From: Escherichia coli
GTDB lineage: Bacteria; Pseudomonadota; Gammaproteobacteria; Enterobacterales; Enterobacteriaceae
Direction: 5' to 3' (one strand)
NCBI RefSeq assembly: GCF_030013595.1
Contig: NZ_CP122768.1
Length of the DNA: 64,000 bases
This document shows, piece after piece, positions 5,711-62,984 of this stretch; positions within the stretch are counted from its first letter, which is position 1; each line of letters opens with the position of its first letter. The notes under the pieces are model-generated. The model saw only the letters and a list, made by a program, of their open reading frames with translations, made no database searches and was not told the DNA's origin. The position numbers were made by a program, and so were the translations under genes.

Positions 5711-7141
5711 ATGCCAGATTTTTTCTCCTTTATTAACAGCGTCCTTTGGGGATCGGTAATGATTTACCTGCTCTTCGGCGCAGGTTGTTGGTTCACTTTT
5801 CGCACCGGATTTGTGCAGTTTCGCTACATCCGCCAGTTTGGCAAAAGTCTTAAAAATAGCATTCATCCACAGCCAGGCGGTTTAACCTCATTTCAATCAT
5901 TGTGTACCAGTCTTGCGGCGCGCGTGGGTAGCGGCAACCTGGCTGGCGTTGCGCTGGCTATTACCGCCGGTGGACCAGGTGCCGTCTTCTGGATGTGGGT
6001 TGCCGCGTTTATCGGCATGGCGACCTCGTTTGCCGAATGTTCCCTTGCACAACTTTATAAAGAACGTGACGTTAATGGGCAGTTTCGTGGCGGACCGGCA
6101 TGGTATATGGCGCGCGGGCTGGGGATGCGCTGGATGGGCGTTCTGTTCGCCCTCTTTTTGCTCATCGCCTACGGCATAATTTTCAGCGGAGTTCAGGCGA
6201 ACGCCGTTGCCCGAGCCCTGAGTTTTTCTTTTGATTTTCCCCCGCTGGTGACAGGCATTATTCTTGCTGTCTTTGCTCTGCTGGCAATCACTCGCGGTCT
6301 TCATGGCGTCGCCCGGCTCATGCAAGGGTTTGTCCCGTTGATGGCGATAATCTGGGTACTGACCAGCCTGGTAATTTGCGTAATGAATATCGGGCAACTT
6401 CCCCACGTCATTTGGTCTATTTTTGAGAGTGCTTTTGGCTGGCAGGAAGCGGCAGGCGGCGCGGCGGGATATACCTTAAGCCAGGCGATTACTAACGGTT
6501 TTCAGCGCAGTATGTTTTCCAATGAGGCGGGAATGGGGTCGACGCCAAACGCGGCAGCGGCGGCTGCGTCCTGGCCTCCGCATCCCGCAGCGCAAGGAAT
6601 TGTCCAGATGATTGGCATTTTTATCGACACCCTGGTCATCTGTACGGCAAGCGCCATGCTGATATTACTGGCGGGTAACGGCACAACCTACATGCCGCTG
6701 GAAGGTATTCAGCTTATCCAGAAGGCGATGCGGGTGTTAATGGGTTCCTGGGGTGCGGAGTTTGTTACCCTCGTGGTTATTCTGTTTGCCTTCAGCTCCA
6801 TCGTTGCCAATTACATTTATGCCGAAAACAATCTCTTCTTCTTACGCCTGAACAACCCTAAAGCGATCTGGTGTCTGCGAATCTGCACCTTCGCAACGGT
6901 CATCGGCGGCACCTTGCTAAGTCTTCCGCTGATGTGGCAACTGGCAGATATCATTATGGCCTGCATGGCTATTACCAATTTGACCGCCATATTACTGCTC
7001 TCGCCTGTGGTTCATACCATTGCCAGTGATTATCTACGCCAGCGTAAACTCGGCGTGCGCCCGGTGTTTGATCCGTTGCGTTATCCGGATATCGGTCGCC
7101 AGCTTTCTCCGGACGCGTGGGATGATGTTTCGCAGGAGTAA
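5711..7141 (+). CDS. yaaJ: Na+/alanine symporter family transporter YaaJ
   Basis: 476-aa polytopic membrane ORF; synteny. Confidence 0.9.
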   Translation: MPDFFSFINSVLWGSVMIYLLFGAGCWFTFRTGFVQFRYIRQFGKSLKNSIHPQPGGLTSFQSLCTSLAARVGSGNLAGVALAITAGGPGAVFWMWVAAFIGMATSFAECSLAQLYKERDVNGQFRGGPAWYMARGLGMRWMGVLFALFLLIAYGIIFSGVQANAVARALSFSFDFPPLVTGIILAVFALLAITRGLHGVARLMQGFVPLMAIIWVLTSLVICVMNIGQLPHVIWSIFESAFGWQEAAGGAAGYTLSQAITNGFQRSMFSNEAGMGSTPNAAAAAASWPPHPAAQGIVQMIGIFIDTLVICTASAMLILLAGNGTTYMPLEGIQLIQKAMRVLMGSWGAEFVTLVVILFAFSSIVANYIYAENNLFFLRLNNPKAIWCLRICTFATVIGGTLLSLPLMWQLADIIMACMAITNLTAILLLSPVVHTIASDYLRQRKLGVRPVFDPLRYPDIGRQLSPDAWDDVSQE

Positions 7142-7210
7142 TCACAACTATCGATCAACTCATTCTCTTTTTTTGCTAAAGTCGGCATAAATTTCCTGCA
7201 AGGACTGGAT

Positions 7211-7987
7211 ATGCTGATTCTTATTTCACCTGCGAAAACGCTCGATTACCAAAGCCCGTTGCCCACCACGCGCTATACGCTGCCGGAGCTGTTAGACAAT
7301 TCCCAGCAGTTGATCCATGAAGCGCGGAAACTGACGCCTCCGCAGATTAGCACGCTGATGCGCATCAGCGACAAACTGGCGGGTATCAACGCCGCTCGCT
7401 TTCATGACTGGCAGCCAGATTTCACGCCGGAGAATGCCCGCCAGGCGATTCTGGCGTTTAAAGGTGATGTCTACACCGGCTTGCAGGCCGAAACCTTCAG
7501 CGAAGACGATTTCGATTTTGCCCAACAGCATTTGCGAATGCTTTCCGGCTTGTATGGCGTACTGCGCCCGCTCGATTTAATGCAGCCTTATCGTCTGGAA
7601 ATGGGGATCCGTCTTGAGAATGCCCGAGGGAAAGATCTGTATCAATTCTGGGGAGATATCATCACCAACAAGCTGAACGAGGCGCTCGCAGCACAAGGCG
7701 ATAATGTGGTGATTAATCTGGCGTCAGATGAGTATTTTAAATCGGTGAAGCCGAAGAAATTGAATGCCGAGATTATCAAGCCGGTGTTCCTCGATGAGAA
7801 GAACGGCAAATTTAAGATCATCAGCTTCTACGCTAAGAAAGCACGCGGTCTGATGAGTCGTTTCATTATTGAAAATCGGCTGACCAAACCAGAGCAACTG
7901 ACTGGTTTTAATAGCGAAGGTTACTTCTTTGATGAAGCTTCCTCCAGCAATGGTGAACTGGTGTTTAAACGCTACGAGCAGCGTTAA
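7211..7987 (+). CDS. yaaA: Peroxide stress protein YaaA (UPF0246)
   Basis: 258-aa ORF; synteny. Confidence 0.9.
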
Positions 7988-8026
7988 GTTTGTAGTCAAT
8001 GCCGGATGGCAATCCGGCATTGATAT

Positions 8027-8323
8027 TTAGCGATGATGTTTGTCAGGCCCCGGACGATGATCGCCACGATGATCATTGTGCTTGTTATGGCGCGGCGATG
8101 GCGGCGGTCCATATGGGTGCCAGCGATTGCCTCGCCATTCATAATGTTGTTTCCACCAGCCGTGGTCGCGCCAGTGACCGCCATCCCAGTAATAGCCACG
8201 ATTATCACGATCGCCTATCTGTAATTTTACTGACGGGACTAACGTAATTTCCGCAGCCTGCGCTGCCATGGGAGCGACCAGAACCAGGGAAAGTGCGAGT
8301 ACGATAGATTGCATCTTTTTCAC
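8027..8323 (-). CDS. yaaX: Secreted His/Trp/Arg-rich small protein YaaX
   Basis: 98-aa ORF with signal peptide [23 protein letters not shown]; overlapping ORFs in other frames are artefacts of the biased composition. Confidence 0.8.
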
Positions 8324-35775: not shown

Positions 35776-35852
35776 GGTAACCTCCCGTGGAAAAGAGACG
35801 AGGTAATCGGGGAACCGGATGAGCATCGCTGCGTCATCCGGCAAATCAAGCC

Positions 35853-42565: not shown

Positions 42566-44152
42566 TTAATGCTCGCGGGTCTGGTGGAACTGAACGTCCG
42601 GATAACGTTCCTGCGCCAGACGCAGGTTGACCATGCTGGTAGCGATGTAAGCGAGGTTATCGCCGCCATCAAGCGCCAGTTGGCTTTCGTTCTTACGCTT
42701 GAACTCTTCGAATTTCTTCGCGTCCGCACATTCTACCCAGCGGGCAGTGGCAACGTTGACTGACTCATACACTGCTTCAACGTTGTATTCGCTCTTCAGG
42801 CGCGCTACCACCACATCAAACTGCAGCACACCAACTGCACCAACGATCAGGTCGTTGTTGGAGATCGGACGGAACACCTGCACCGCGCCCTCTTCGGAAA
42901 GCTGTACCAGCCCTTTGAGCAGCTGTTTTTGCTTCAGCGGATCTTTCAGGCGGATACGACGGAACAGTTCCGGTGCGAAGTTCGGAATACCGGTGAACTT
43001 CATCATCTCCCCCTGGGTAAAGGTGTCACCGATCTGAATAGTGCCGTGGTTGTGCAGGCCGAGGATATCGCCCGGATACGCTTCTTCAACGTGCGAACGG
43101 TCGCCCGCCATAAAGGTCAGCGCGTCGGAGATCACCACATCTTTCGCGGTGCGCACCTGGCGCAGCTTCATGCCTTTTTCATATTTACCGGATACCACGC
43201 GCATAAACGCCACGCGGTCGCGGTGTTTCGGGTCCATGTTGGCCTGAATTTTAAATACGAAGCCGGTAAATTTGTCTTCGCTCGCTTCTACGGTACGGGT
43301 ATCAGTCTGACGCGGCATCGGCGCAGGTGCCCACTCCACCAGGCCATCCAACATATGATCGACGCCGAAGTTACCTAGCGCAGTACCGAAGAATACCGGA
43401 GTGATTTCGCCCGCAAGGAATAATTCTTTGTCGAACTCGTTAGACGCGCCTTTCACCAGTTCCAGTTCGTCACGCAGCTGCTGCGCCAGATCTTCACCAA
43501 CCGCAGCATCGAGATCCGGGTTATTCAGCCCTTTAACAATGCGGACTTCCTGAATGGTGTGGCCTTTACCACTCTGATAAAGATAGGTTTCATCTTTATA
43601 AAGGTGGTAAACGCCTTTAAACAGCTTGCCGCAGCCAATCGGCCAGGTGATCGGCGCACAGCCGATTTTCAGCTCGTTCTCAACTTCATCGAGCAGTTCC
43701 ATCGGGTCGCGGATATCACGGTCAAGTTTGTTCATAAAGGTGAGGATCGGCGTGTCACGCAGACGGGTAACTTCCATCAGCTTGCGGGTACGATCTTCAA
43801 CACCTTTTGCGGCGTCGATAACCATCAGGCAGCAGTCCACCGCCGTCAGGGTACGATAGGTATCTTCCGAGAAGTCTTCGTGCCCCGGGGTGTCGAGCAG
43901 GTTAACCAGGCAATCGTGATACGGAAACTGCATCACAGACGTAGTAATGGAGATCCCACGCTGCTTTTCCATCTCCATCCAGTCCGACTTAGCGTGCTGG
44001 TTGGAACCACGGCCTTTTACTGTACCGGCGGTCTGAATGGCCTGTCCGAACAGCAGCACCTTCTCGGTGATGGTAGTCTTACCGGCGTCTGGGTGAGAAA
44101 TAATTGCAAAGGTTCTTCTTTTCGCTACCTCTGCGGCCAAAAGGCTTGTCAT
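42566..44152 (-). CDS. prfC: Peptide chain release factor 3
   Basis: Translation [40 protein letters not shown] (GTPase G1); track ORF starts at an upstream TTG (44179). Confidence 0.9.
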
Positions 44153-44171
44153 AATTGTTGTCTCGTTGATT

Positions 44172-44288
44172 ATGTACAATCATATGTACAAAGAAAAATT
44201 CATGCCGCTGATTGTACATTTTGGAGGTATCAGAGCATAGCAGAACATGATCAGTAGGTGTATTTGTAGCCAAAGCTCATTTGTACAT
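44172..44288. repeat. Cluster of four TGTACA-core repeats near the prophage-host junction
   Basis: ATGTACAA at 44172-44179 and 44184-44191; inverse TTGTACAT at 44212-44219 and 44281-44288. Confidence 0.35.
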
Positions 44289-44305
44289 GCCGCAATCTTC
44301 GTTCT

Positions 44306-44356
44306 ATTGACACTGTTTATTCACCCAGTTAAAAATAAGACTGTATACAAACACAG
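44306..44356 (+). promoter_or_regulatory. SOS-type promoter with LexA box upstream of the dinI-like gene
   Basis: Consensus -35 TTGACA (44306-44311); CTGT-N8-ACAG box CTGTATACAAACACAG (44341-44356); RBS GAGGG (44361-44365). Confidence 0.6.
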
Positions 44357-44371
44357 TATAGAGGGAATTTT

Positions 44372-44648
44372 ATGCGTATTGAGATCTGCATAGCCAAAGA
44401 GAAAATGACTAAACTGCCAAACAGCGCTGTGGATGCGTTAGAAGGAAGAATTAACCCGACGCACCGGTAAGCGTTATGAAGATGTAGAGGTGATCGTAAA
44501 AGCCACCAGCAATGATGACCTTTCTGTTACACGCACCGCCGATAAAGATTCAGTTAAAATTTTTGTTCAGGACACTCTGAAAGATACCTAGGAATTTGCT
44601 GACGAGTGATTTAGTTCATCATCTCTGGACACAATTCACTTGTATTGA
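44372..44648 (+). pseudogene. dinI-like gene with one frameshift and two stops at Trp positions
   Basis: Frame 1 [23 protein letters not shown] ends at TAA after a 1-nt frame slip near 44441; next frame continues [49 protein letters not shown], then TAG (44589-44591), EFADE, TGA (44607-44609), FSSS; the two stops sit where DinI proteins have the TWESADDWF tryptophans. Confidence 0.65.
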
Positions 44649-44674
44649 CTTTAAGATCATTAAATTGTAATAAT
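44645..44674 (+). promoter_or_regulatory. Candidate sigma-70 promoter for the leader/SLATT/RT transcript
   Basis: -35 TTGACT (44645-44650), 18-nt spacer, extended -10 TGtAATAAT (44666-44674); predicted start near 44681. Confidence 0.45.
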
Positions 44675-44680
44675 TCAAAA

Positions 44681-44815
44681 GGATGGGGCAGTTTTTTCCT
44701 CTTGCGTATGCAAGGGCGGCTCTGATAATGAACAGTAATATTTTACTGTTGAGCTTATGCTCACTGATCCTGCCGAGCAGGATGTTCAACGGTTCCAATA
44801 TATCCTGCCCCTTCC
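44681..44815 (+). ncRNA. Candidate structured leader or ncRNA upstream of the SLATT-RT operon
   Basis: 11-nt inverted repeat GGATGGGGCAG (44681-44691) and CTGCCCCTTCC (44805-44815), 10 of 11 bp, enclosing four hairpins: 44701-44714 (5 bp), 44731-44750 (8 bp), 44751-44762 (4 bp), 44767-44783 (7 bp). Alternative reading is a leaderless 51-codon N-terminal extension from ATG 44683. Confidence 0.35.
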
Positions 44816-44835
44816 GCTTTTTAAAAGGATATTTT

Positions 44836-45387
44836 ATGCATGAAAATATTTGGTTTACATATAAAGCCCGTATTCAAGCGCACCATAGACTAGAATGGCT
44901 TGAAAAACACTCTCAATTTATCCTCGTTTGGTATGCTATATTGAGTGCGGTACTTTCAATTATAACGTTACGATTTCCAAAATTTCTAGGAGATAATACA
45001 GATATCGTTGCGGCAATACTTTCAGTGGCTCTACTGGGTATTTCTCTGATCGTATCTAACCTAGATTATCGTGGTCGAGCAATAGCCATGAGAAGGAATT
45101 ATATTGCACTACAGAGACTCTATTTTGATATTAATAACGGCCAACAGTTAACTCTTGAACAGAAAGAAAAATATTTTAATTTGCTCAATGAGGTTGAGAA
45201 TCATCGTGACATAGATGATAAAGTTTCAAGGGTAACTCAAGTTGGACTTACGACTAGACTCCCCACACAAAAAGAAAAAATAATTGTTAAATTATGGATA
45301 TTACGTCGAATGTTTATTACTGTCGGCCTTTATATCCTCCCATTAATATGTCTTTGGATTGACTATGAATGCAAGCAGAGTTTTTAA
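44836..45387 (+). CDS. SLATT-like multi-TM protein (putative membrane effector)
   Basis: ATG 44836 with RBS AAGGA (44824-44828, 7-nt spacer); 183 aa; two adjacent hydrophobic helices (FILVWYAILSAVLSIITL, IVAAILSVALLGISLIVSNL) flanked by amphipathic helices, plus C-terminal MFITVGLYILPLICLWI; stop 45385-45387 overlaps RT start. Confidence 0.7.
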   Translation: MHENIWFTYKARIQAHHRLEWLEKHSQFILVWYAILSAVLSIITLRFPKFLGDNTDIVAAILSVALLGISLIVSNLDYRGRAIAMRRNYIALQRLYFDINNGQQLTLEQKEKYFNLLNEVENHRDIDDKVSRVTQVGLTTRLPTQKEKIIVKLWILRRMFITVGLYILPLICLWIDYECKQSF

Positions 45388-46735
45388 AAAGTCATTCTCG
45401 AAAAAAAACCTTCTAAAAGTATACAATGAAAAAATCAAAGAATCAGGAGCGATTGGCATAGATCGGATTCGTCCATCAAAACTTGATTTAACAATAAAGA
45501 ATGAGATCACTTTTATTTTTGAAAAGGTTAATTGTGGAAATTATAAATTTACAGCATATAAAGAAAAATTAATATCTAAAGGGGCTAACTCTATCCCCAG
45601 ACAGATTTCCATACCAACTGCCAGGGACAGAATTACCCTTAGGGCTCTCTGTGAATGCCTTACAGAAATATATCCTAACTCCAGATTAAAACTACCACAT
45701 ACAGTAATTGACTTATTGAAAAATGCATTAAACAGCGATCTATATGCTGAATATGCAAAAATAGATCTCAAAAGTTTCTATCCTTCAATTGAACATAAAT
45801 TGATATTTAATGCAATAAAAAATAAGATTAGAAAAAAAGAAATTAGGCAGTTAATAACATCATCATTAATCGTGCCTACTGTAAGTGGAAGTACAGGAAG
45901 CAAAGGTGTCCCTAATAATACCAGAGGAGTACCTCAGGGGTTAGCAATATCAAACATTTTAGCTGAAATATCACTATCTGATTTCGACAATGAAATCAAT
46001 AAAATGCATGACATATGGTACATGCGATACGTTGATGACATTCTTATTTTAACGCAAAAAGATCAAGCAACAAAAATTGCATCTCATATCATTGATAAGC
46101 TTCAATCATTAAATTTAAACCCACATCCATTAAATGAAGAGAACTCAAAATCCAAAGTAGGCAGCTTGGATGAAAGTTTCAACTTTTTGGGCTACCACAT
46201 AAAAAATCGAGAATTATTGATAAAACATGAGAGCATTCTTAGATTTGAGTCATCCTTAGCAAAAATTTTTACTGCATATAGACACGCTCTACTACAAGCT
46301 AAAAATAAGCGCGATAAAGAACGAGCTGTTGCATATTGTCAGTGGAAACTAAATCTTAGAATTACGGGGTGTGTGTTTGAAGGTAAACGATTGGGATGGG
46401 TATCGTACTTCTCACAAATAACGTCAACAGCTCAACTTCGAGCTGTTAATCATACGATCAATAATCTTATCCGCCGATTCGGCCTTTCATCAGAAATAAA
46501 ACCAAAGTCTTTGATTAAAACTTTCTATGAACTCCGCAGGGGTAGAGCGGAGACTTTTAAATACATACCTAACTTTGACAATCTACATATATCTCAGAAA
46601 CGAGAAATTGTTTCTATGTGGATAGGGAAAGAGAATGAAAAAAAACTTAGCAATAGTGAAATAGAGAGAAAATTTAAATTTAAAATTGCGAAATCAGTAA
46701 AAGAGCTTGAAGAGGACATTTCAGGGATATCATAG
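45365..46735 (+). CDS. Reverse transcriptase (RT domain plus ~170-aa C-terminal extension), family unassigned
   Basis: RT motifs in order: GIDRIRPS...IPRQISIPTARDRITLRAL, YAKIDLKSFYPSI, GVPQGLAISNILAEISLSDFD, YMRYVDDILIL (YVDD at 46028-46039), FLGYHI; ATG 45365 (track ORF starts at TTG 45359); AT-rich. Confidence 0.85.
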   Translation: MNASRVFKKSFSKKNLLKVYNEKIKESGAIGIDRIRPSKLDLTIKNEITFIFEKVNCGNYKFTAYKEKLISKGANSIPRQISIPTARDRITLRALCECLTEIYPNSRLKLPHTVIDLLKNALNSDLYAEYAKIDLKSFYPSIEHKLIFNAIKNKIRKKEIRQLITSSLIVPTVSGSTGSKGVPNNTRGVPQGLAISNILAEISLSDFDNEINKMHDIWYMRYVDDILILTQKDQATKIASHIIDKLQSLNLNPHPLNEENSKSKVGSLDESFNFLGYHIKNRELLIKHESILRFESSLAKIFTAYRHALLQAKNKRDKERAVAYCQWKLNLRITGCVFEGKRLGWVSYFSQITSTAQLRAVNHTINNLIRRFGLSSEIKPKSLIKTFYELRRGRAETFKYIPNFDNLHISQKREIVSMWIGKENEKKLSNSEIERKFKFKIAKSVKELEEDISGIS

Positions 46736-46847
46736 ATATGTAATCCATTAAATCCTTTATATATAAAGCAATAAACACACTATTTAAATTCACAAATCAG
46801 CCGCAGTATCCTGCCATGACAAGTTGCTGCGGCATATCACAAAACGA

Positions 46848-47432
46848 TTACTCCATAACAGGGACCGCAGGCCACTCAATATCAGGTGCAGTTGATGTAT
46901 CAACACGGTTCAGCAACACCCGATACTTTTTCCAGGCTTCCAGCAATGAGTTTTCTTCCTCCGTTGCGATTTCCAGATCTACAGCATCCTGAAGTGGCGC
47001 AATATGCTCACTGGCTACCTGCATCAGGTTGTTTTTTGTTTCTTCCGCCTCCCGGATCCGGAACAGTTTTTCTGCTTCCGTATCCTTCAACCAGGCTGTG
47101 CCGTTCCACTTCTGATATTCCCCTTCCGGCGATAACCAGGTAACATTTTCCGGTAACGGACCGAGTTCAGAAATAAATAACGCGTCGCCGGAAGCCACGT
47201 CATAAACCGTTTTACCCCGATGATCTTCAACGAGATGCCACGATGACTCATCACTGTTGAAAACAGCCACGAAGCCAGCCGGAATATCTGGCGGTGCAAT
47301 ATCGGTACTGTTTGCTGGCAGACCTGTATGAGGCGGAATATATGCGTCACCTTCACCAATAAATTCATTAGTTCCGGCCAGCAGATTATAAATTTTTATG
47401 GTCCGTGGTTGTTCACTCATTCTGAATGCCAT
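46848..47432 (-). CDS. tfa: Tail fiber assembly protein Tfa
   Basis: 194-aa [61 protein letters not shown]; reads as lambda Tfa. Confidence 0.9.
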
Positions 47433-50400
47433 TATGCAAGCCTCACAATATAGTTAAATGCGATGTTTTTGACGGTGTTTTCCGCGTTACCAGCAGCGTT
47501 AACGGTGATGGTGTGTCCATGTGAACCAATCGCAACGGAGTGCGTGTGTGCACCAATACCGACAGTATGTGCGTGTGCACCTGCAGATGCTGCTGTGCCG
47601 GACAGTGAGTGGCTATGGTTACCATCTGTACTGGTATTAGCTAACGCCCCCGTAGACATACCTACTGAGCCTTGTACACCCCAGGTATTTTGACCTGAGC
47701 TTGTATAACCATATTGATAAGTATCTTTAAAAACACTGGGGTTAAATCGACGGCCATCTCTATGGCTGTGATTACCAGCTGCATTCGTGCTGCCACTTAA
47801 ACTATGGGTATGCGCACCAGTGTTATTCGTGGATTTAGTGCCGTAATCAAACGACGATGTGGTTTTCGTCCCCAAATCAGTACTGGATGCGCTGGCGCTG
47901 TGGGTATGCGATTTTATGCCGTCCTGTTCCTGAGACAATACGGCACGACCACTGGCGGGCTTGCCCTTAATCGTCCAGCCACGCATATCAGGGATCACGC
48001 CTGACGGATAAGCGGCTGCAAGTTTCGGGTAGGCAGATTTGTCAAAAGTCTGCCCCTGCATCAGGGCATAACCAGACGGAACGGTATCTGATGGCCACGG
48101 AATTGGTGCGCCAACTGGGTAGCTTTCTGGTGGAAGATTTTTCGAGGTATAAACTTCTGCCCAGCCTTCCTCAAAACCATAGCCATCTCTTGAGGAACGG
48201 TAGAACAGACCTCCATTTCTGTAATGCGCCTTCATCTGCAGGGTCCGGCAACTTCCGACTCCGGTATAGAAGTTAACCAGAATATAGCTGTCGCCAGAGC
48301 GGGTGACATTGTAAGCGCCTGATTCGGCATTCCAGGGAACGCCACCATCCGCATCGGCATATGTATCCGTTGCCCTTCTGGCAAAAGCAGCCACATGCGC
48401 GGCGGTTAAAGTAATATCTTTTGAACCATCAAACTCAACCCCAGAAACCAGTCTTGGCGTTTGCAGCTTTGTTGCTGTCAATGCGTTACCGTTCAGACTT
48501 GCAGACAGTTTGGTTCCAATAACCAGTTCGCCGGTTGCGTTATCAATAGCAAACGGTCTTAATGTATTCCAGCCACCATAAACATCACCTTGATTGGTAA
48601 GCAGCAGGTAAGTTTTAGCGCCATCATTACGCCATAATGCCCCATACTCCCCACCTATCATTCGAATCTGATTACCACCACGCGCTACAATTTCGTCTGT
48701 GGCAAAAAGTTTTTTGCACGACAAGTTATCGTTAACGATTAACGAATGGGACTCATAAAAACCACGCCCACTCTTAAAATCAAGGATAACGTCCGCCGCG
48801 ATACATTCAGTCGCCGGATTTGTTGCCCCAAACTTATAGGTCGTATCATTAACAACGAGATCAGCACCAGGTGCGGATATTGACAGGCCATCTTCGATAA
48901 ACGCAAAAACAGGGAAAGCAGCGCCATCAACATAGAACACAGAGCGCAAATCATCGCCCTTATTACTCATCATTATTGAGTGGATGGCTCGTTCATTGTT
49001 TTGATATTGCCAGAACATTCCATAAGCATAACGCCCCCTGTCAGTCCAGCCACCAGGCATAACAAATCCGTTAAACTCGCAGTTATTCATCGGATCGCCT
49101 GCGGTTCTCGTTGCCGTGGTGATAATGACCCTTGATGCCAGTTCGCTTACTGAGCCAGCAGAACGCATAACAACAACAGGGTAATATTTTCCAGATGTTG
49201 CACCTGCAGGAGCGTTAACCCGCACATAACGCATACCACGCTTATCAGCAAAGTCTGTTTTACTGACCGCGTTAATGTTGTTCAGGAAGCGTCCCTTATC
49301 GGGTATATCAGCGCCGTTCTGGTCTTTCTGCAGACGTTTCTCTGCATTGTCATAGGCTGATTTTACTGCCTTTGGCGTTGCCGCCAGCGTTTCAGACGAA
49401 CTGTTGGTCGCACAGCTGAGCTGTACTATCCCCTTTTTCGTCGTACTTGCATCCTCAAGCGCCACGGCGGATGCAATATCCTCTGCCCGTTTTGCCGCTG
49501 TCTCGGCGCGCGTTGCCGCGGATTCCGCCGTACTTTTGCTCTGTGCTGCCGCCGTCGCACTGCCAGCTGCCTCTGTCGCCTTCGTGGATGCTGTCGTGGC
49601 GCTGCCCTTCGCTGCGGACGCTTGTCTGGTCGCCTCATCTTTTGAAGCAGACGCCGATGATGCCGATGACGCCGCCGAACTGGCGGACGATGCAGCTGCC
49701 ATTTTTGAGGATTCTGCGCTGGTTTCCGACGCTTTCGCGTTCGTCTCGGATGTCTTCGCTGCGGAAGCAGACCTCGCTGCTGCGCTGGCCTGTTCAGTGG
49801 CTTCGCCAGCCTTCGTTGTGGCTGTTGAAGCAGACGATGCGGCACTTTCTGCCGATTTTCCGGCGGCGGTGGCACTGGCTGAGGCCTGCCCGGCACTTGT
49901 TGACGCGGCACTGGCAGACGACGCAGCCGCTGTTTTTGAGCCTGCCGCAGCCGAGGCGCTCTGTCCCGCTGCCGTTTCAGAAGACCTGGCGTTTGTCTCA
50001 GACGTCTTTGCCGCCTTCGCGGAATTGCCTGCCGCCGTTGCCGAGGAAGCGGCACTACTGGCGCTTGATGATGCGTTCGTTTCTGATGATTTCGCTGCCT
50101 CTTTTGAGGCCGCCGCATCCCGGGCTGAGGTGGCTGCTTCTGACGCCTTCGTGGTCGCGGCGGATGCAGAAGTTGCTGCTGATTGTTGTGACGCTGCCGC
50201 ATTCGTTTCTGACGTTTTCGCCGCAGCGGCACTGGTAGCTGCCGCGCTTTTTGAGGACTCTGCAGCAGCAGCACTTTTCGATGCTTCACTGGCCTTTGTT
50301 GATGCCGTTCCTGCGCTGGAAGATGCTGACTGAGCCGACGACGCGGCCTGTCCGGCTGACGTGCTGGCTGCGCGTGCTGAGCCTGCAGCATCAGTCGCAT

Positions 50401-56395: not shown

Positions 56396-57094
56396 TTACT
56401 GCGAAAGTTTGTTAATGGAAAGGAAGCCGCCAAAGTTGCCGACGTTATTGCGGAACTTACAACCGCTCAGGCATTTGCTGCATTTATCCTTCGTGATATC
56501 GGAGGTCGGCTGGTCATATTCATCCGCGACCGCCGGACCGTGATAACCGCACTCATCGCCGCGATAGGTCCAGGTGCAGGTGTTGGCCAGCATGATACGC
56601 CCCGGAAAAACAGCGCCGTCCGTTTCCGTCGGCGTGGCCAGTACAAAAGAGGCACTGACCGCGCTCAGTTCGCTGCACTGCTCGATGCGCCAGCGGCTGA
56701 TCACCTCCTGCTCCGGGTCGGCGTCACTGTTTCCGTTGACGAAGTTCACCGCATCCAGAAAACGGGCGTAAACCTTACGCCGGACCACCGTTCCGCCGAC
56801 CAGACTCTGCAGATCTTCCGCCATCCCGGTGACCATACCGTGCAGGTTAGAAACCGTCAGTGTCGGACGGGCAGCACTGCCCTTGCCGTTCAGTTCAAAT
56901 CCTGTCCCCTGAATGGGGTATGCCTGATACTGCCGCCCCTGCCAGGTAACCGGCTCACCTTTTTCGTTCTGCTCATTACAGAAAAAATAACGTTCACCAC
57001 CGACCTCTGTCAGATCGATTTCCCAGAGCACCACCTGGGCTGACTGAGTGAGGCGTGTCGTCTCATGATGTGTTTCCTGTGGAATATCCTGCAT
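56396..57094 (-). CDS. L: Minor tail protein L
   Basis: 232-aa ORF MQDIPQETHHETTRLTQSAQVVLWEIDLTEVGGERYFFCNEQNEKGEP; lambda gpL-like. Confidence 0.85.
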   Translation of the reverse strand: MQDIPQETHHETTRLTQSAQVVLWEIDLTEVGGERYFFCNEQNEKGEPVTWQGRQYQAYPIQGTGFELNGKGSAARPTLTVSNLHGMVTGMAEDLQSLVGGTVVRRKVYARFLDAVNFVNGNSDADPEQEVISRWRIEQCSELSAVSASFVLATPTETDGAVFPGRIMLANTCTWTYRGDECGYHGPAVADEYDQPTSDITKDKCSKCLSGCKFRNNVGNFGGFLSINKLSQ

Positions 57095-60507: not shown

Positions 60508-60799
60508 CTCCGGAAATACCTTCCCCCAGATGCATCAGTTCTTCGTCCGTTCGCTCCGGTATCCCGTTCTCTTCCGGTAAAAGGCTGAAATCAGCCACCG
60601 CAGCATCACTGCTACCGGACACCATTCTCACGATCAATGCCTTCAGCGAGGCAAACTGCGCATCCATCCACACATCACTGAAGCTCTGCATCCGGAAATA
60701 ATCGCCCCACTCACCAAGCTCAGTGGCCGACATTTCCGACAGCATCCGCCGCCAGTCTGCCCGCCGGAACTCCCGGGCAAGCCGCATGACAAACTGCAT
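60470..60799 (-). CDS. T: Tail assembly chaperone T segment (expected to be expressed as G-T fusion by -1 frameshift)
   Basis: ORF in the -1 frame relative to G and overlapping its end; lambda G/GT arrangement. Confidence 0.65.
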   Translation of the reverse strand: MQFVMRLAREFRRADWRRMLSEMSATELGEWGDYFRMQSFSDVWMDAQFASLKALIVRMVSGSSDAAVADFSLLPEENGIPERTDEELMHLGEGISGGVRYGPDSQPGH

Positions 60800-60807
60800 T
60801 TCCCGCG

Positions 60808-61236
60808 TCAGGACTTTTCCGGCGTCAGCACCTCATGCTCCAAATCCCCGGCATTCTCAATGGCTCCCATACCGCTCAGCGACAGAACCATCTCCGCCCC
60901 CGCTCCCAGGGCATCATACGACCATGTTGTAATAACGGATGCGCAAAGCGTCTCAACATCCTGAGACTGTTCCGCATTCCACAGTGAGCGGGAAACCAGC
61001 CAGGCATTGATATCCATCCCCATCCGCAGAAAAGCAATCTGTCGTTCAGCCTCCGGCAGTTCTCCCTCTTCGGCATCAAACTTTGCCGTTCGCTGCTGAA
61101 CAAACGCCAGATATTCAATTCTCTGCAGCCCGGACAGCTCACTGAGCACCACGGACTGCTTTTCATAATTAAACGTGCCCTGTTTCAGAAACATCATGTT
61201 CTCCACCTGCAAAAAAGCCCCGGATAACCGGGGCAA
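60808..61236 (-). CDS. G: Tail assembly chaperone G
   Basis: 142-aa ORF ending EHEVLTPEKS; position between V and T. Confidence 0.8.
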   Translation of the reverse strand: MPRLSGAFLQVENMMFLKQGTFNYEKQSVVLSELSGLQRIEYLAFVQQRTAKFDAEEGELPEAERQIAFLRMGMDINAWLVSRSLWNAEQSQDVETLCASVITTWSYDALGAGAEMVLSLSGMGAIENAGDLEHEVLTPEKS

Positions 61237-61254: not shown

Positions 61255-61998
61255 TTAACCTGCGGCGCTGACAGCCACCGCAGCCACTGCCACAAAATCG
61301 CCGTCAGAAGTCATGCCCACAATGCTGACACTGCCCTGCTTCACGCCTTTCACCGTGGCCACAAGCCCGTTCAGGGTCACCGTGGCAGTCTGTGGATCTG
61401 TCGAATGCACACTGATCGCTTTGTCACTGGCTCCGTCAGGTTTTACTGTAAAGGTCAGCGTGGTGGTTGCTCCCACTTTTACACTGGCAGATGCCGGTGA
61501 TACTGTCAGCCCGGTAACGCTCACGGTTTCAGTGCCTTCCTCTGCCAGATACGGACGCCCCACACCGCTGATTTTCACTGTGCGGGTCATCACGTCTTTT
61601 GAGGCAATGGTTTTACCCAGTGAGCTCAGCCAGCCACGGAAAACATCAACAGTGCCGTTGGGATATTTGATACGAAACGCGCAGACTTCACCGGAGTCGA
61701 ACAACTGAACCAGTTTTTTCTGCCCGCTGTCACCCGGACGCCAGGCCAGCGTCGCCGAAGTATCACCGACGGATTTCTGCCCCTGGGTTGTCGTTTTCCA
61801 GTCTGCATCTTCATCATCGAGATAAGTGTCATCTTCTGCATCAGCGGTCATTTCGCCAGGTTGCAGATCCTTCACCATCGCAAGACGCAGCCAGTCAGTG
61901 TCCGATAAAGGGTTCGCAAACGCATCGCCCTTGCCGGTGTACATCCAGAACGTCGTTCCCGCACCTTTCGTTTTTGCCAGTGGATTTGGTGTGGTCAT
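61255..61998 (-). CDS. V: Major tail protein V with C-terminal Ig-like domain
   Basis: From internal Met: MTTPNPLAKTKGAGTTFWMYTGKGDAFANPLSDTDWLRLAMVKDL (lambda gpV-like), C-terminal Ig-like segment; track ORF starts 25 codons earlier. Confidence 0.85.
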   Translation of the reverse strand: MTTPNPLAKTKGAGTTFWMYTGKGDAFANPLSDTDWLRLAMVKDLQPGEMTADAEDDTYLDDEDADWKTTTQGQKSVGDTSATLAWRPGDSGQKKLVQLFDSGEVCAFRIKYPNGTVDVFRGWLSSLGKTIASKDVMTRTVKISGVGRPYLAEEGTETVSVTGLTVSPASASVKVGATTTLTFTVKPDGASDKAISVHSTDPQTATVTLNGLVATVKGVKQGSVSIVGMTSDGDFVAVAAVAVSAAG

Positions 61999-62008
61999 TG
62001 CCACCTCC

Positions 62009-62409
62009 TTAATTCGTGTACGTGATCTGGTACGTGATTTCCGCCATCGCCCAGGTGGCCATCTCATTATCACGTTGATAGTTAAAACCGAGTGGGATCA
62101 GGGTGTCGATGAGTCCGGAAAGTGCCGGTACATCATTCAGGGCCGGGAAAATGGTGCTCTCCATCCACATATCCAGCTCTGAATCCGGTGCCTGTGCCCG
62201 GATGAAGACAGCAATATGCAGAACAGCCTGCCAGTCATCTTCATCCGTCATTTTTCCGGTGTACTGAGCATCACTCAGCCACACCGCCACGGCAGGCAGT
62301 TCCTGCGCATCAACAAATGCCGGAAGCCCGTCAAAAAACGTGGCGCTGTCTCCACACTGTTCCCGAAGGCGTGCCAGTACGACCTGCGGATTTGTGTATG
62401 TCGGTTCAT
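62009..62409 (-). pseudogene. U: Tail terminator protein U, apparently frameshifted near codon 9
   Basis: ATG overlapping the Z stop (62407-62409) opens a frame reading MNRHTQIRR... that ends after 43 codons; the U-like body (VVLARLREQCGDSATFFDGLPAFVDAQELPAVAVWLSDAQYTGK...ITYQITYTN) is in the -1 frame with no ATG/GTG/TTG before the GTG at 62290. Confidence 0.5.
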
Positions 62410-62984
62410 CGGGTCAGCCATAACCTCAGTTGTTGTTTCAGTGCATACCCCAGCTGTTTCGGCATTTCCGCAGCAATGATGCGGTCGCGGGCATCTTCAA
62501 ATGCCTGTGTCAGCTGTCCGGACAGAGGGATTTTCACCACATCAATGGGGTAACGATTTTTGCCATCAATACGCCGCATCACATGCCAGCGACCATTCGC
62601 CAGTTGCTGAATAAACGCATCCCGGAAAAGATATTTACCCACCTTCAGCACGCTGCCACGGTACTGCAGTTTTCCACCACGCCGGGTCAGTCTGACCCGG
62701 GCGGTCCCCAGCTTAATGGCAGGCAGATTGCCCCGGTTAACGCGGATCCTGGCCGTCATTTTTCCTGACGGACTGGCTTTAAACACCCGGACACGCTGAC
62801 GTACCAGTTTCAGGGGGATCCCTTTCACCTGGTTATCTCCCGCAACGGTATTCCCGGCAACCTGCCGGGTGGCAACCGAGACCGCTTTCTGTGCCACACG
62901 GTTTATCGCCCATGCGCTGGCCTGTGGCACCATACGGGTATCAAGGCTGTTCAGATTGCGGATGGCATTCTCAAGCCCCTTCAT
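62406..62984 (-). CDS. Z: Tail completion protein Z
   Basis: 192-aa ORF in lambda gpZ position and size. Confidence 0.75.
   Translation of the reverse strand: MKGLENAIRNLNSLDTRMVPQASAWAINRVAQKAVSVATRQVAGNTVAGDNQVKGIPLKLVRQRVRVFKASPSGKMTARIRVNRGNLPAIKLGTARVRLTRRGGKLQYRGSVLKVGKYLFRDAFIQQLANGRWHVMRRIDGKNRYPIDVVKIPLSGQLTQAFEDARDRIIAAEMPKQLGYALKQQLRLWLTR

Follow-up and report, generated by a model that had tools for sequence, protein, structure and literature searches.

The closest described counterpart of the gene analysed here is the tail terminator gpU of phage lambda (PF06141; PDB 1Z1Z, 3FZ2 and 3FZB). Each lambda virion carries gpU as one hexameric ring, which brings polymerisation of the tail tube to a stop, and in the cryo-EM structure the O-loop of the protein (residues 25-37) docks gpFII while its E-loop (residues 45-58) contacts gpV (PMC10721106). 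Lambda without its tail terminator forms capsids and very long polytails (bioRxiv 10.1101/2024.10.16.618446). The tail genes of lambda stand in the order Z-U-V-G-T-H-M-L-K-I-J, and its gpU gene is uninterrupted. The 64-kb stretch of Escherichia coli DNA that was analysed as a whole, here called the window, contains a prophage with the same order, in full Z-U-V-G-T-H-M-L-K-I-J-lom-stf-tfa, adjoining prfC. But in this prophage a one-base deletion interrupts U behind its eighth codon, and no uninterrupted reading frame of about 131-133 codons was found for it in the window.

An earlier note, made from the letters of this DNA alone, had taken the gene for a lambda-type U, and this identity was supported. 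The restored protein matched the lambda gpU structures 3FZB, 1Z1Z and 3FZ2 over residues 3-131 with E values from 2.8e-42 to 3.7e-41 (best about 3e-42), and precomputed Pfam matches to PF06141 (Phage_tail_U) were present both for the intact 133-aa product and for a 93-aa product of the body of the gene. U also has Z (tail completion) on one side and V (tail tube) on the other. When the restored protein was modelled with AlphaFold from its single sequence (mean pLDDT 73), a helix at residues 3-22 was followed by a strand at 24-27, a loop at 28-40, and then a sheet and a second helix; this predicted succession of N-terminal helix, first strand, loop, sheet and second helix is like that of lambda gpU.

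A tail terminator gene in two frames

The features around the lesion are listed in Table 1. The TGA of Z and the start codon of U share the sequence ATGA, and the U start codon (62409-62407) opens a frame that we call frame 0. Its translation is MNRHTQIR RSYWHAFGNSVETAPRFLTGFRHLLMRRNCLPWRCG*, which is 44 codons with the stop at 62277-62275. The body of U was found in the -1 frame, which reads ...PQVVLARLREQCGDSATFFDG... (also given as ...PQVVLARLREQCGDSATFFDGLPAFVDAQELPAVAVWLSD...) and ends with TAA at 62011-62009. This body frame is open from 62413, but the earliest ATG, GTG or TTG in it is the GTG at 62290. This split over two frames follows deterministically from the letters, and chance plays no part in it. 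As written, U is a pseudogene, and no full-length product is encoded.

Table 1 Features of the Z-U-V region in window coordinates
Feature	Coordinates	Strand	Description	Basis
Gene Z	62406..62984	-	Tail completion protein, 192 aa, intact	ORFs; PF06763 Minor_tail_Z; relative annotated 'phage tail protein'
U 5' fragment	62275..62409	-	Frame 0; 8 native residues (MNRHTQIR), 36 out-of-frame residues, TGA	
U body	62009..62385	-	-1 frame; residues 10-133 of the intact protein and stop	DNA 100% identical to intact gene
Sole body-frame ORF with a start codon	62009..62290	-	GTG start, 93 aa, residues 41-133	
Lesion site	62383..62387		Plus strand CCTGC, against CCTGGC in relatives	Alignments
T TTT TTG heptamer	62332..62338	-	-1 phase in frame 0, codons 25-26, incidental	
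Gene V	61255..61998	-	Major tail tube protein, 247 aa, intact, own AAGGAGG ribosome-binding site	

To locate the lesion, 5,426 complete E. coli genomes were searched by megablast with the Z-U-V segment as query, and copies were found that align 702 bases to the 701 of the window. In the alignment with ETEC-2265 and IAI39 there was one gap, and everything else from 62440 to 62000, including all of U, was identical. The relatives read ATC CGC CAG GTC and the window reads ATC CGC AGG TC, which means that one C is missing at codons 8/9; the C of CGC-CAG that survives is window 62386. The loss of this one C/G breaks a Dcm motif (CCAGG/CCTGG). In the relatives the intact gene has 402 nt and encodes the 133-aa protein WP_001079419.1 ('phage minor tail U family protein').

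Most of what the earlier note had said about this layout stood. The ATG overlapping the stop codon of Z, the frame that it opens and a body in the -1 frame with no start codon before GTG 62290 were all borne out by the sequence and the reading of its ORFs, and the alignment with intact relatives agreed with a single-base deletion. Frame 0 has 44 codons, not the 43 that had been counted, and the frame switch had been placed at about 62383-62385, 1-3 nt away from the remaining C at 62386.

Rarity of the deletion and state of the prophage

When the deletion allele was sought in the 5,426 complete E. coli genomes with a 69-nt probe centred on the lesion, the probe matched 1,991 places in 1,826 genomes, and 0 of these places had the deletion. 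The best full-length matches to the probe had 98.6% identity, which equals one gap; the lone record with at least 99% identity ranked below these full-length matches and so was a partial match. The intact 70-mer had exact matches in 816 records. All 17 matching phage records, for example cdtI, mEp460, HannyBb, Tritos and phi458, had the intact form, and the two-frame U that the earlier note had thought of looking for in related phages occurred in none of them. The exact pattern of the deletion allele was not found in viral_contigs or genome_contigs, and look-up of the 44-aa and 48-aa frame-0 peptides returned no record. In the assembly collection, the exact intact 133-aa U was indexed in 27,123 blocks, while the 93-aa truncated product, which gene callers report from damaged copies, was indexed in 175.

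Other 5' lesions of U were seen in this material. In four assemblies (L004, L006, L007 and L011), codon 9 of U is changed from CAG to the amber codon TAG at about position 2905, which corresponds to window 62386. Here the second C of the same CCAGG has become T, as deamination of 5-methylcytosine would be expected to produce, and the change stands on two U haplotypes, the L004 type and the L006 type. The amber allele CGC-TAG had no exact 70-mer match in the complete RefSeq E. coli genomes and was seen only in the wider assembly collection. Further assemblies had deletions of 2 bp, 11 bp or 1 bp in the 5' part of U, and some of the assemblies with 5' lesions were visibly error-ridden. Since the amber change affects this C on two haplotypes and the deletion of the window falls in the same CC pair, the Dcm-methylated cytosine at codon 9 might be a recurrent knock-out hotspot, which we regard as unlikely. 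If it were one, Dcm methylation by the host would repeatedly disarm the tail terminator of a widespread prophage family.

The copies closest to that of the window were reached through its J protein, the exact sequence of which was present on eight contigs, two of them extending as far as U. L015 (GCA_900448395.1) was 100% identical to the window over 15,380 + 6,670 bp (22,050 bp) except for base 62386, and L016 (GCA_025624855.1) was 100% identical over 15,186 bp except for the same base. Both encode an intact 133-aa U. So 22 kb made up of the prophage end and the prfC-side flank is identical to sisters with intact U in all but one base. The lesion of U therefore postdates the divergence of the window from these two copies, and no other substitution has been seen between them. 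The lesion, its uniqueness, and the identity and intactness of its surroundings are shown directly by the searches and alignments.

Comparison with strain W150 gave a similar result for the rest of the 64 kb. The U deletion was the only coding indel found in the whole window. Between 39316 and 64000 there were three gap events, namely the U deletion and two gaps that compensate each other where I and J meet in the intergenic boundary. Every other indel of the window was intergenic, except for a single cluster of mutually compensating indels in the 3' end of yaaX. The genes Z, V, G, T, H, M, L, K, I, J, lom, stf and tfa were all full length. At about 44372-44591 (+) the prophage has a dinI-like pseudogene, which in W150 is annotated as 'DinI-like family protein, frameshifted' next to an intact U; no indel separates the window from W150 in this stretch, so the dinI-like lesion is old and shared, and it says nothing about this particular copy.

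Several side observations concern the same prophage and its host. L015 carries an insertion of about 1.43 kb (its positions 6671-8100) that splits tail gene L at a point corresponding to window 56937-56941. Of the two genes called in it, one has transposase-type HTH domains and the other an rve integrase domain, and at the junction the two alignments share 5 bp. This IS insertion is a second independent knock-out of a tail gene on the same sequence background. At window 44836-46735 (+), between prfC and the dinI-like pseudogene on one side and the tail-fibre assembly gene on the other, there is an intact pair, shared with W150 and L015, in which the gene of a SLATT-domain protein (183 aa; PADLOC RTasSLATT, E 3e-57) is followed by that of a UG17-class reverse transcriptase (456 aa; RT_UG17, E 8e-159). 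The stretch around the pair has a low GC content (36.5% in 44001-46000 and 42.5% in 46001-48000).

For the host chromosome, 108 substitutions between window 12400 and 39300, mostly transitions, were absent from all of the 10-22 E. coli relatives fetched. These outgroups were found through the sltY and radA proteins and were 97-99% identical. From the private substitutions and this level of identity, the host belongs to a comparatively divergent E. coli lineage that has no representative in the complete RefSeq set. Two intergenic stretches, 33138-33176 (deoD-deoB) and 35798-35852 (deoA-deoC), were 26 and 48 bp net shorter than in W150.

Recoding, decay, mutation or consensus error

We then weighed four explanations of the split gene. 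One is that it is compensated in translation, and that a -1 shift, for example at T TTT TTG, or re-initiation gives enough gpU. The earlier note had seen no slippery heptamer, which is not correct, as T TTT TTG does exist in -1 phase: it is an in-phase X XXY YYZ heptamer in frame 0 ahead of the stop. The body frame is open throughout the region, and with a single hexameric gpU ring only 6 copies per virion are needed. But U_UU.U_UU.G is outside the 18 E. coli motifs listed by Sharma et al. and outside their most efficient ones; those 18 are under-represented and give more than 0.1% frameshifting without stimulators in E. coli, and even when a pseudoknot was present, the U_UUG tetramer lay just 1.8- to 3.6-fold above background (PMC4066793). 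The 70 nt downstream had a minimum free energy of -26.3 kcal/mol, and shuffled versions of them had a mean of -24.0 (z = -0.76), which indicates no stimulatory fold. A shift at this heptamer would also leave residues 9-26, which is most of helix 1 and strand 1, as unrelated sequence, and the intact copies in the alignments have this T6 run too. At the lesion itself, re-pairing from CGC to CCG is expected to be poor, and a hungry-codon shift at the rare AGG made by the deletion was rejected since the CGC tRNA should not be able to re-pair on CCG. The two-frame arrangement occurs at 0 of the 1,991 E. coli places and in 0 of the 17 phage records. Programmed frameshifting was therefore rejected on the weak motif, the lack of a stimulatory structure, the garbled N-terminus and the missing conservation, and because all relatives examined have a single frame, the split is not a programmed one, in line with the earlier note, which had called this unlikely. 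Recoding of U is very unlikely, and we give almost no credence to the view that it supplies enough gpU. The programmed -1 frameshift of lambda G/GT (G GGA AAG) also joins overlapping frames in the same tail operon, but the G/T overlap is conserved, with separate G and T genes annotated in relatives, whereas the split of U is private and has no efficient signal. In the window, the G/T overlap lies at 60799-60822 (-), where G ends with TGA at 60810-60808 and T (ATG 60799) is in the -1 frame; just upstream there is CCG GAA AAG with an A_AAG tetramer instead of the G GGA AAG heptamer of lambda.

A further explanation, in line with the cryptic prophage that the earlier note had argued for, is an old element in decay in which the lesion of U is one of many and the RT defence module has been kept. 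This fits with the dinI-like pseudogene at the prophage end and the intact pair of SLATT protein and UG17 reverse transcriptase, and the head, lysis and regulatory half of the prophage, which lies outside the window, could hide further damage. But a decaying prophage should show several independent lesions and divergence from functional relatives, and we found one lesion in the visible tail half and 100% identity over 15-22 kb. The visible 22 kb matches sister copies with intact U, every other tail gene is full length, and the dinI-like frameshift that had been offered as support is common to W150, whose U is intact. The large excess of intact U over the truncated product in the assembly collection, and the INPHARED phage records that carry the same 5' sequence of U in intact form, also speak against decay. 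This single indel is thus no evidence of a cryptic prophage, its visible half being otherwise base-for-base identical to copies with intact U, and we consider decay of this kind quite improbable.

What is left is a choice between two explanations that differ in whether the base is missing from the DNA. We favour, with a probability of about 0.5, a genuine, very recent and non-programmed one-base deletion that leaves a null allele of U. Nearly as likely is an artefact of base calling or assembly, in which the DNA has an intact CCAGG, the consensus dropped one C at the 5-methylcytosine of this Dcm motif, and U is intact. The earlier note was right about the one-base deletion but had left sequencing error unweighed despite the Dcm-site context. 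This context makes an artefact a serious possibility, because the base was lost exactly within CCAGG/CCTGG and Dcm sites are a known hotspot of nanopore error: in consensus sequences made with default nanopore basecaller models, Dcm motifs held about 70% of the errors, and 20-30% of these were left after polishing (PMC6591954). In the 22 kb compared (41562-64000), there are 53 CCWGG motifs of 5 nt, about 1.2% of bases, so a random real mutation would fall in a Dcm motif roughly 1 time in 80. Among point differences from two assemblies that are 100% identical elsewhere, there is this one indel and not a single substitution, whereas most mutations in E. coli mutation-accumulation studies are substitutions. 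The allele was absent from every other copy and assembly searched, which gives no sign that it is inherited. Lambdoid tail genes are multi-copy, the Z-U-V segment being present twice in the median complete E. coli genome and as often as 7 times, and short-read polishing is weakest in repeats, so a residual nanopore-type error could have been left unpolished here.

On the other side, the remaining 52 Dcm motifs in 41562-64000, 6 of them within Z-U-V, are correct against the exact sisters. The 108 window-private differences over 26.5 kb of chromosome are all substitutions with 0 indels, and only 2 of them are near Dcm motifs. No core gene is frameshifted relative to W150, and an error of this type is confined to nanopore data. 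A generally error-ridden assembly was ruled out, as there is no other coding indel against W150 and there are no private chromosomal indels. The IS insertion in gene L of L015, beyond doubt a real event in otherwise identical sequence, shows that inactivating events do occur at this time depth. On this balance, true loss of the base from the DNA is only slightly the more probable reading. The finding comes down to a familiar gene with an unremarkable private lesion or, possibly, a consensus error, and U merits annotation at 62409..62009 as a frameshifted pseudogene with a flag for read-level verification.

Expected phenotype and comparison with lambda

If the base is indeed absent from the DNA, translation begun at the ATG coupled to Z would give a 44-residue nonsense peptide ending at the stop at 62277-62275. 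At best, slight re-initiation at GTG 62290 or 62284 would give a fragment from residue 41 onwards, which would have neither helix 1 nor strand 1 nor the gpFII-docking O-loop, and the allele would presumably be null. Little polarity on V is expected, given the separate ribosome-binding site of this gene. If the prophage behaves like the U mutants of lambda, induction would then yield DNA-filled heads and unterminated polytails and no infectious particles. An exception would be a host in which another lambdoid prophage supplies U in trans, which is conceivable given the number of related Z-U-V segments in one genome. The biological weight of the finding is small, since an isolated indel private to one copy of a well-studied phage gene is commonplace.

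Other close counterparts are the copies that encode WP_001079419.1, in lambdoid prophages and in the phages cdtI, HannyBb and Tritos. Their DNA is identical over the whole gene except for one base, and the prophage copies share the site by prfC and the SLATT and RT cargo with the window; they read CGC-CAG in a single 402-nt frame, whereas the window reads CGC-AG. The U-defective mutants of lambda likewise lose the terminator early in the gene, and the phenotype of heads with unterminated polytails expected here is the same as theirs, but the lambda phenotypes were shown experimentally, while that of the window is inferred from a lesion that is perhaps absent from the DNA. The stf frameshift of laboratory 'wild type' lambda is similar in another way, for there too one recently acquired frameshift affects a tail gene while the rest of the phage genome is fully functional (PMC10721106). 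However, lambda stf is dispensable in the laboratory, and U is needed for infectious particles.
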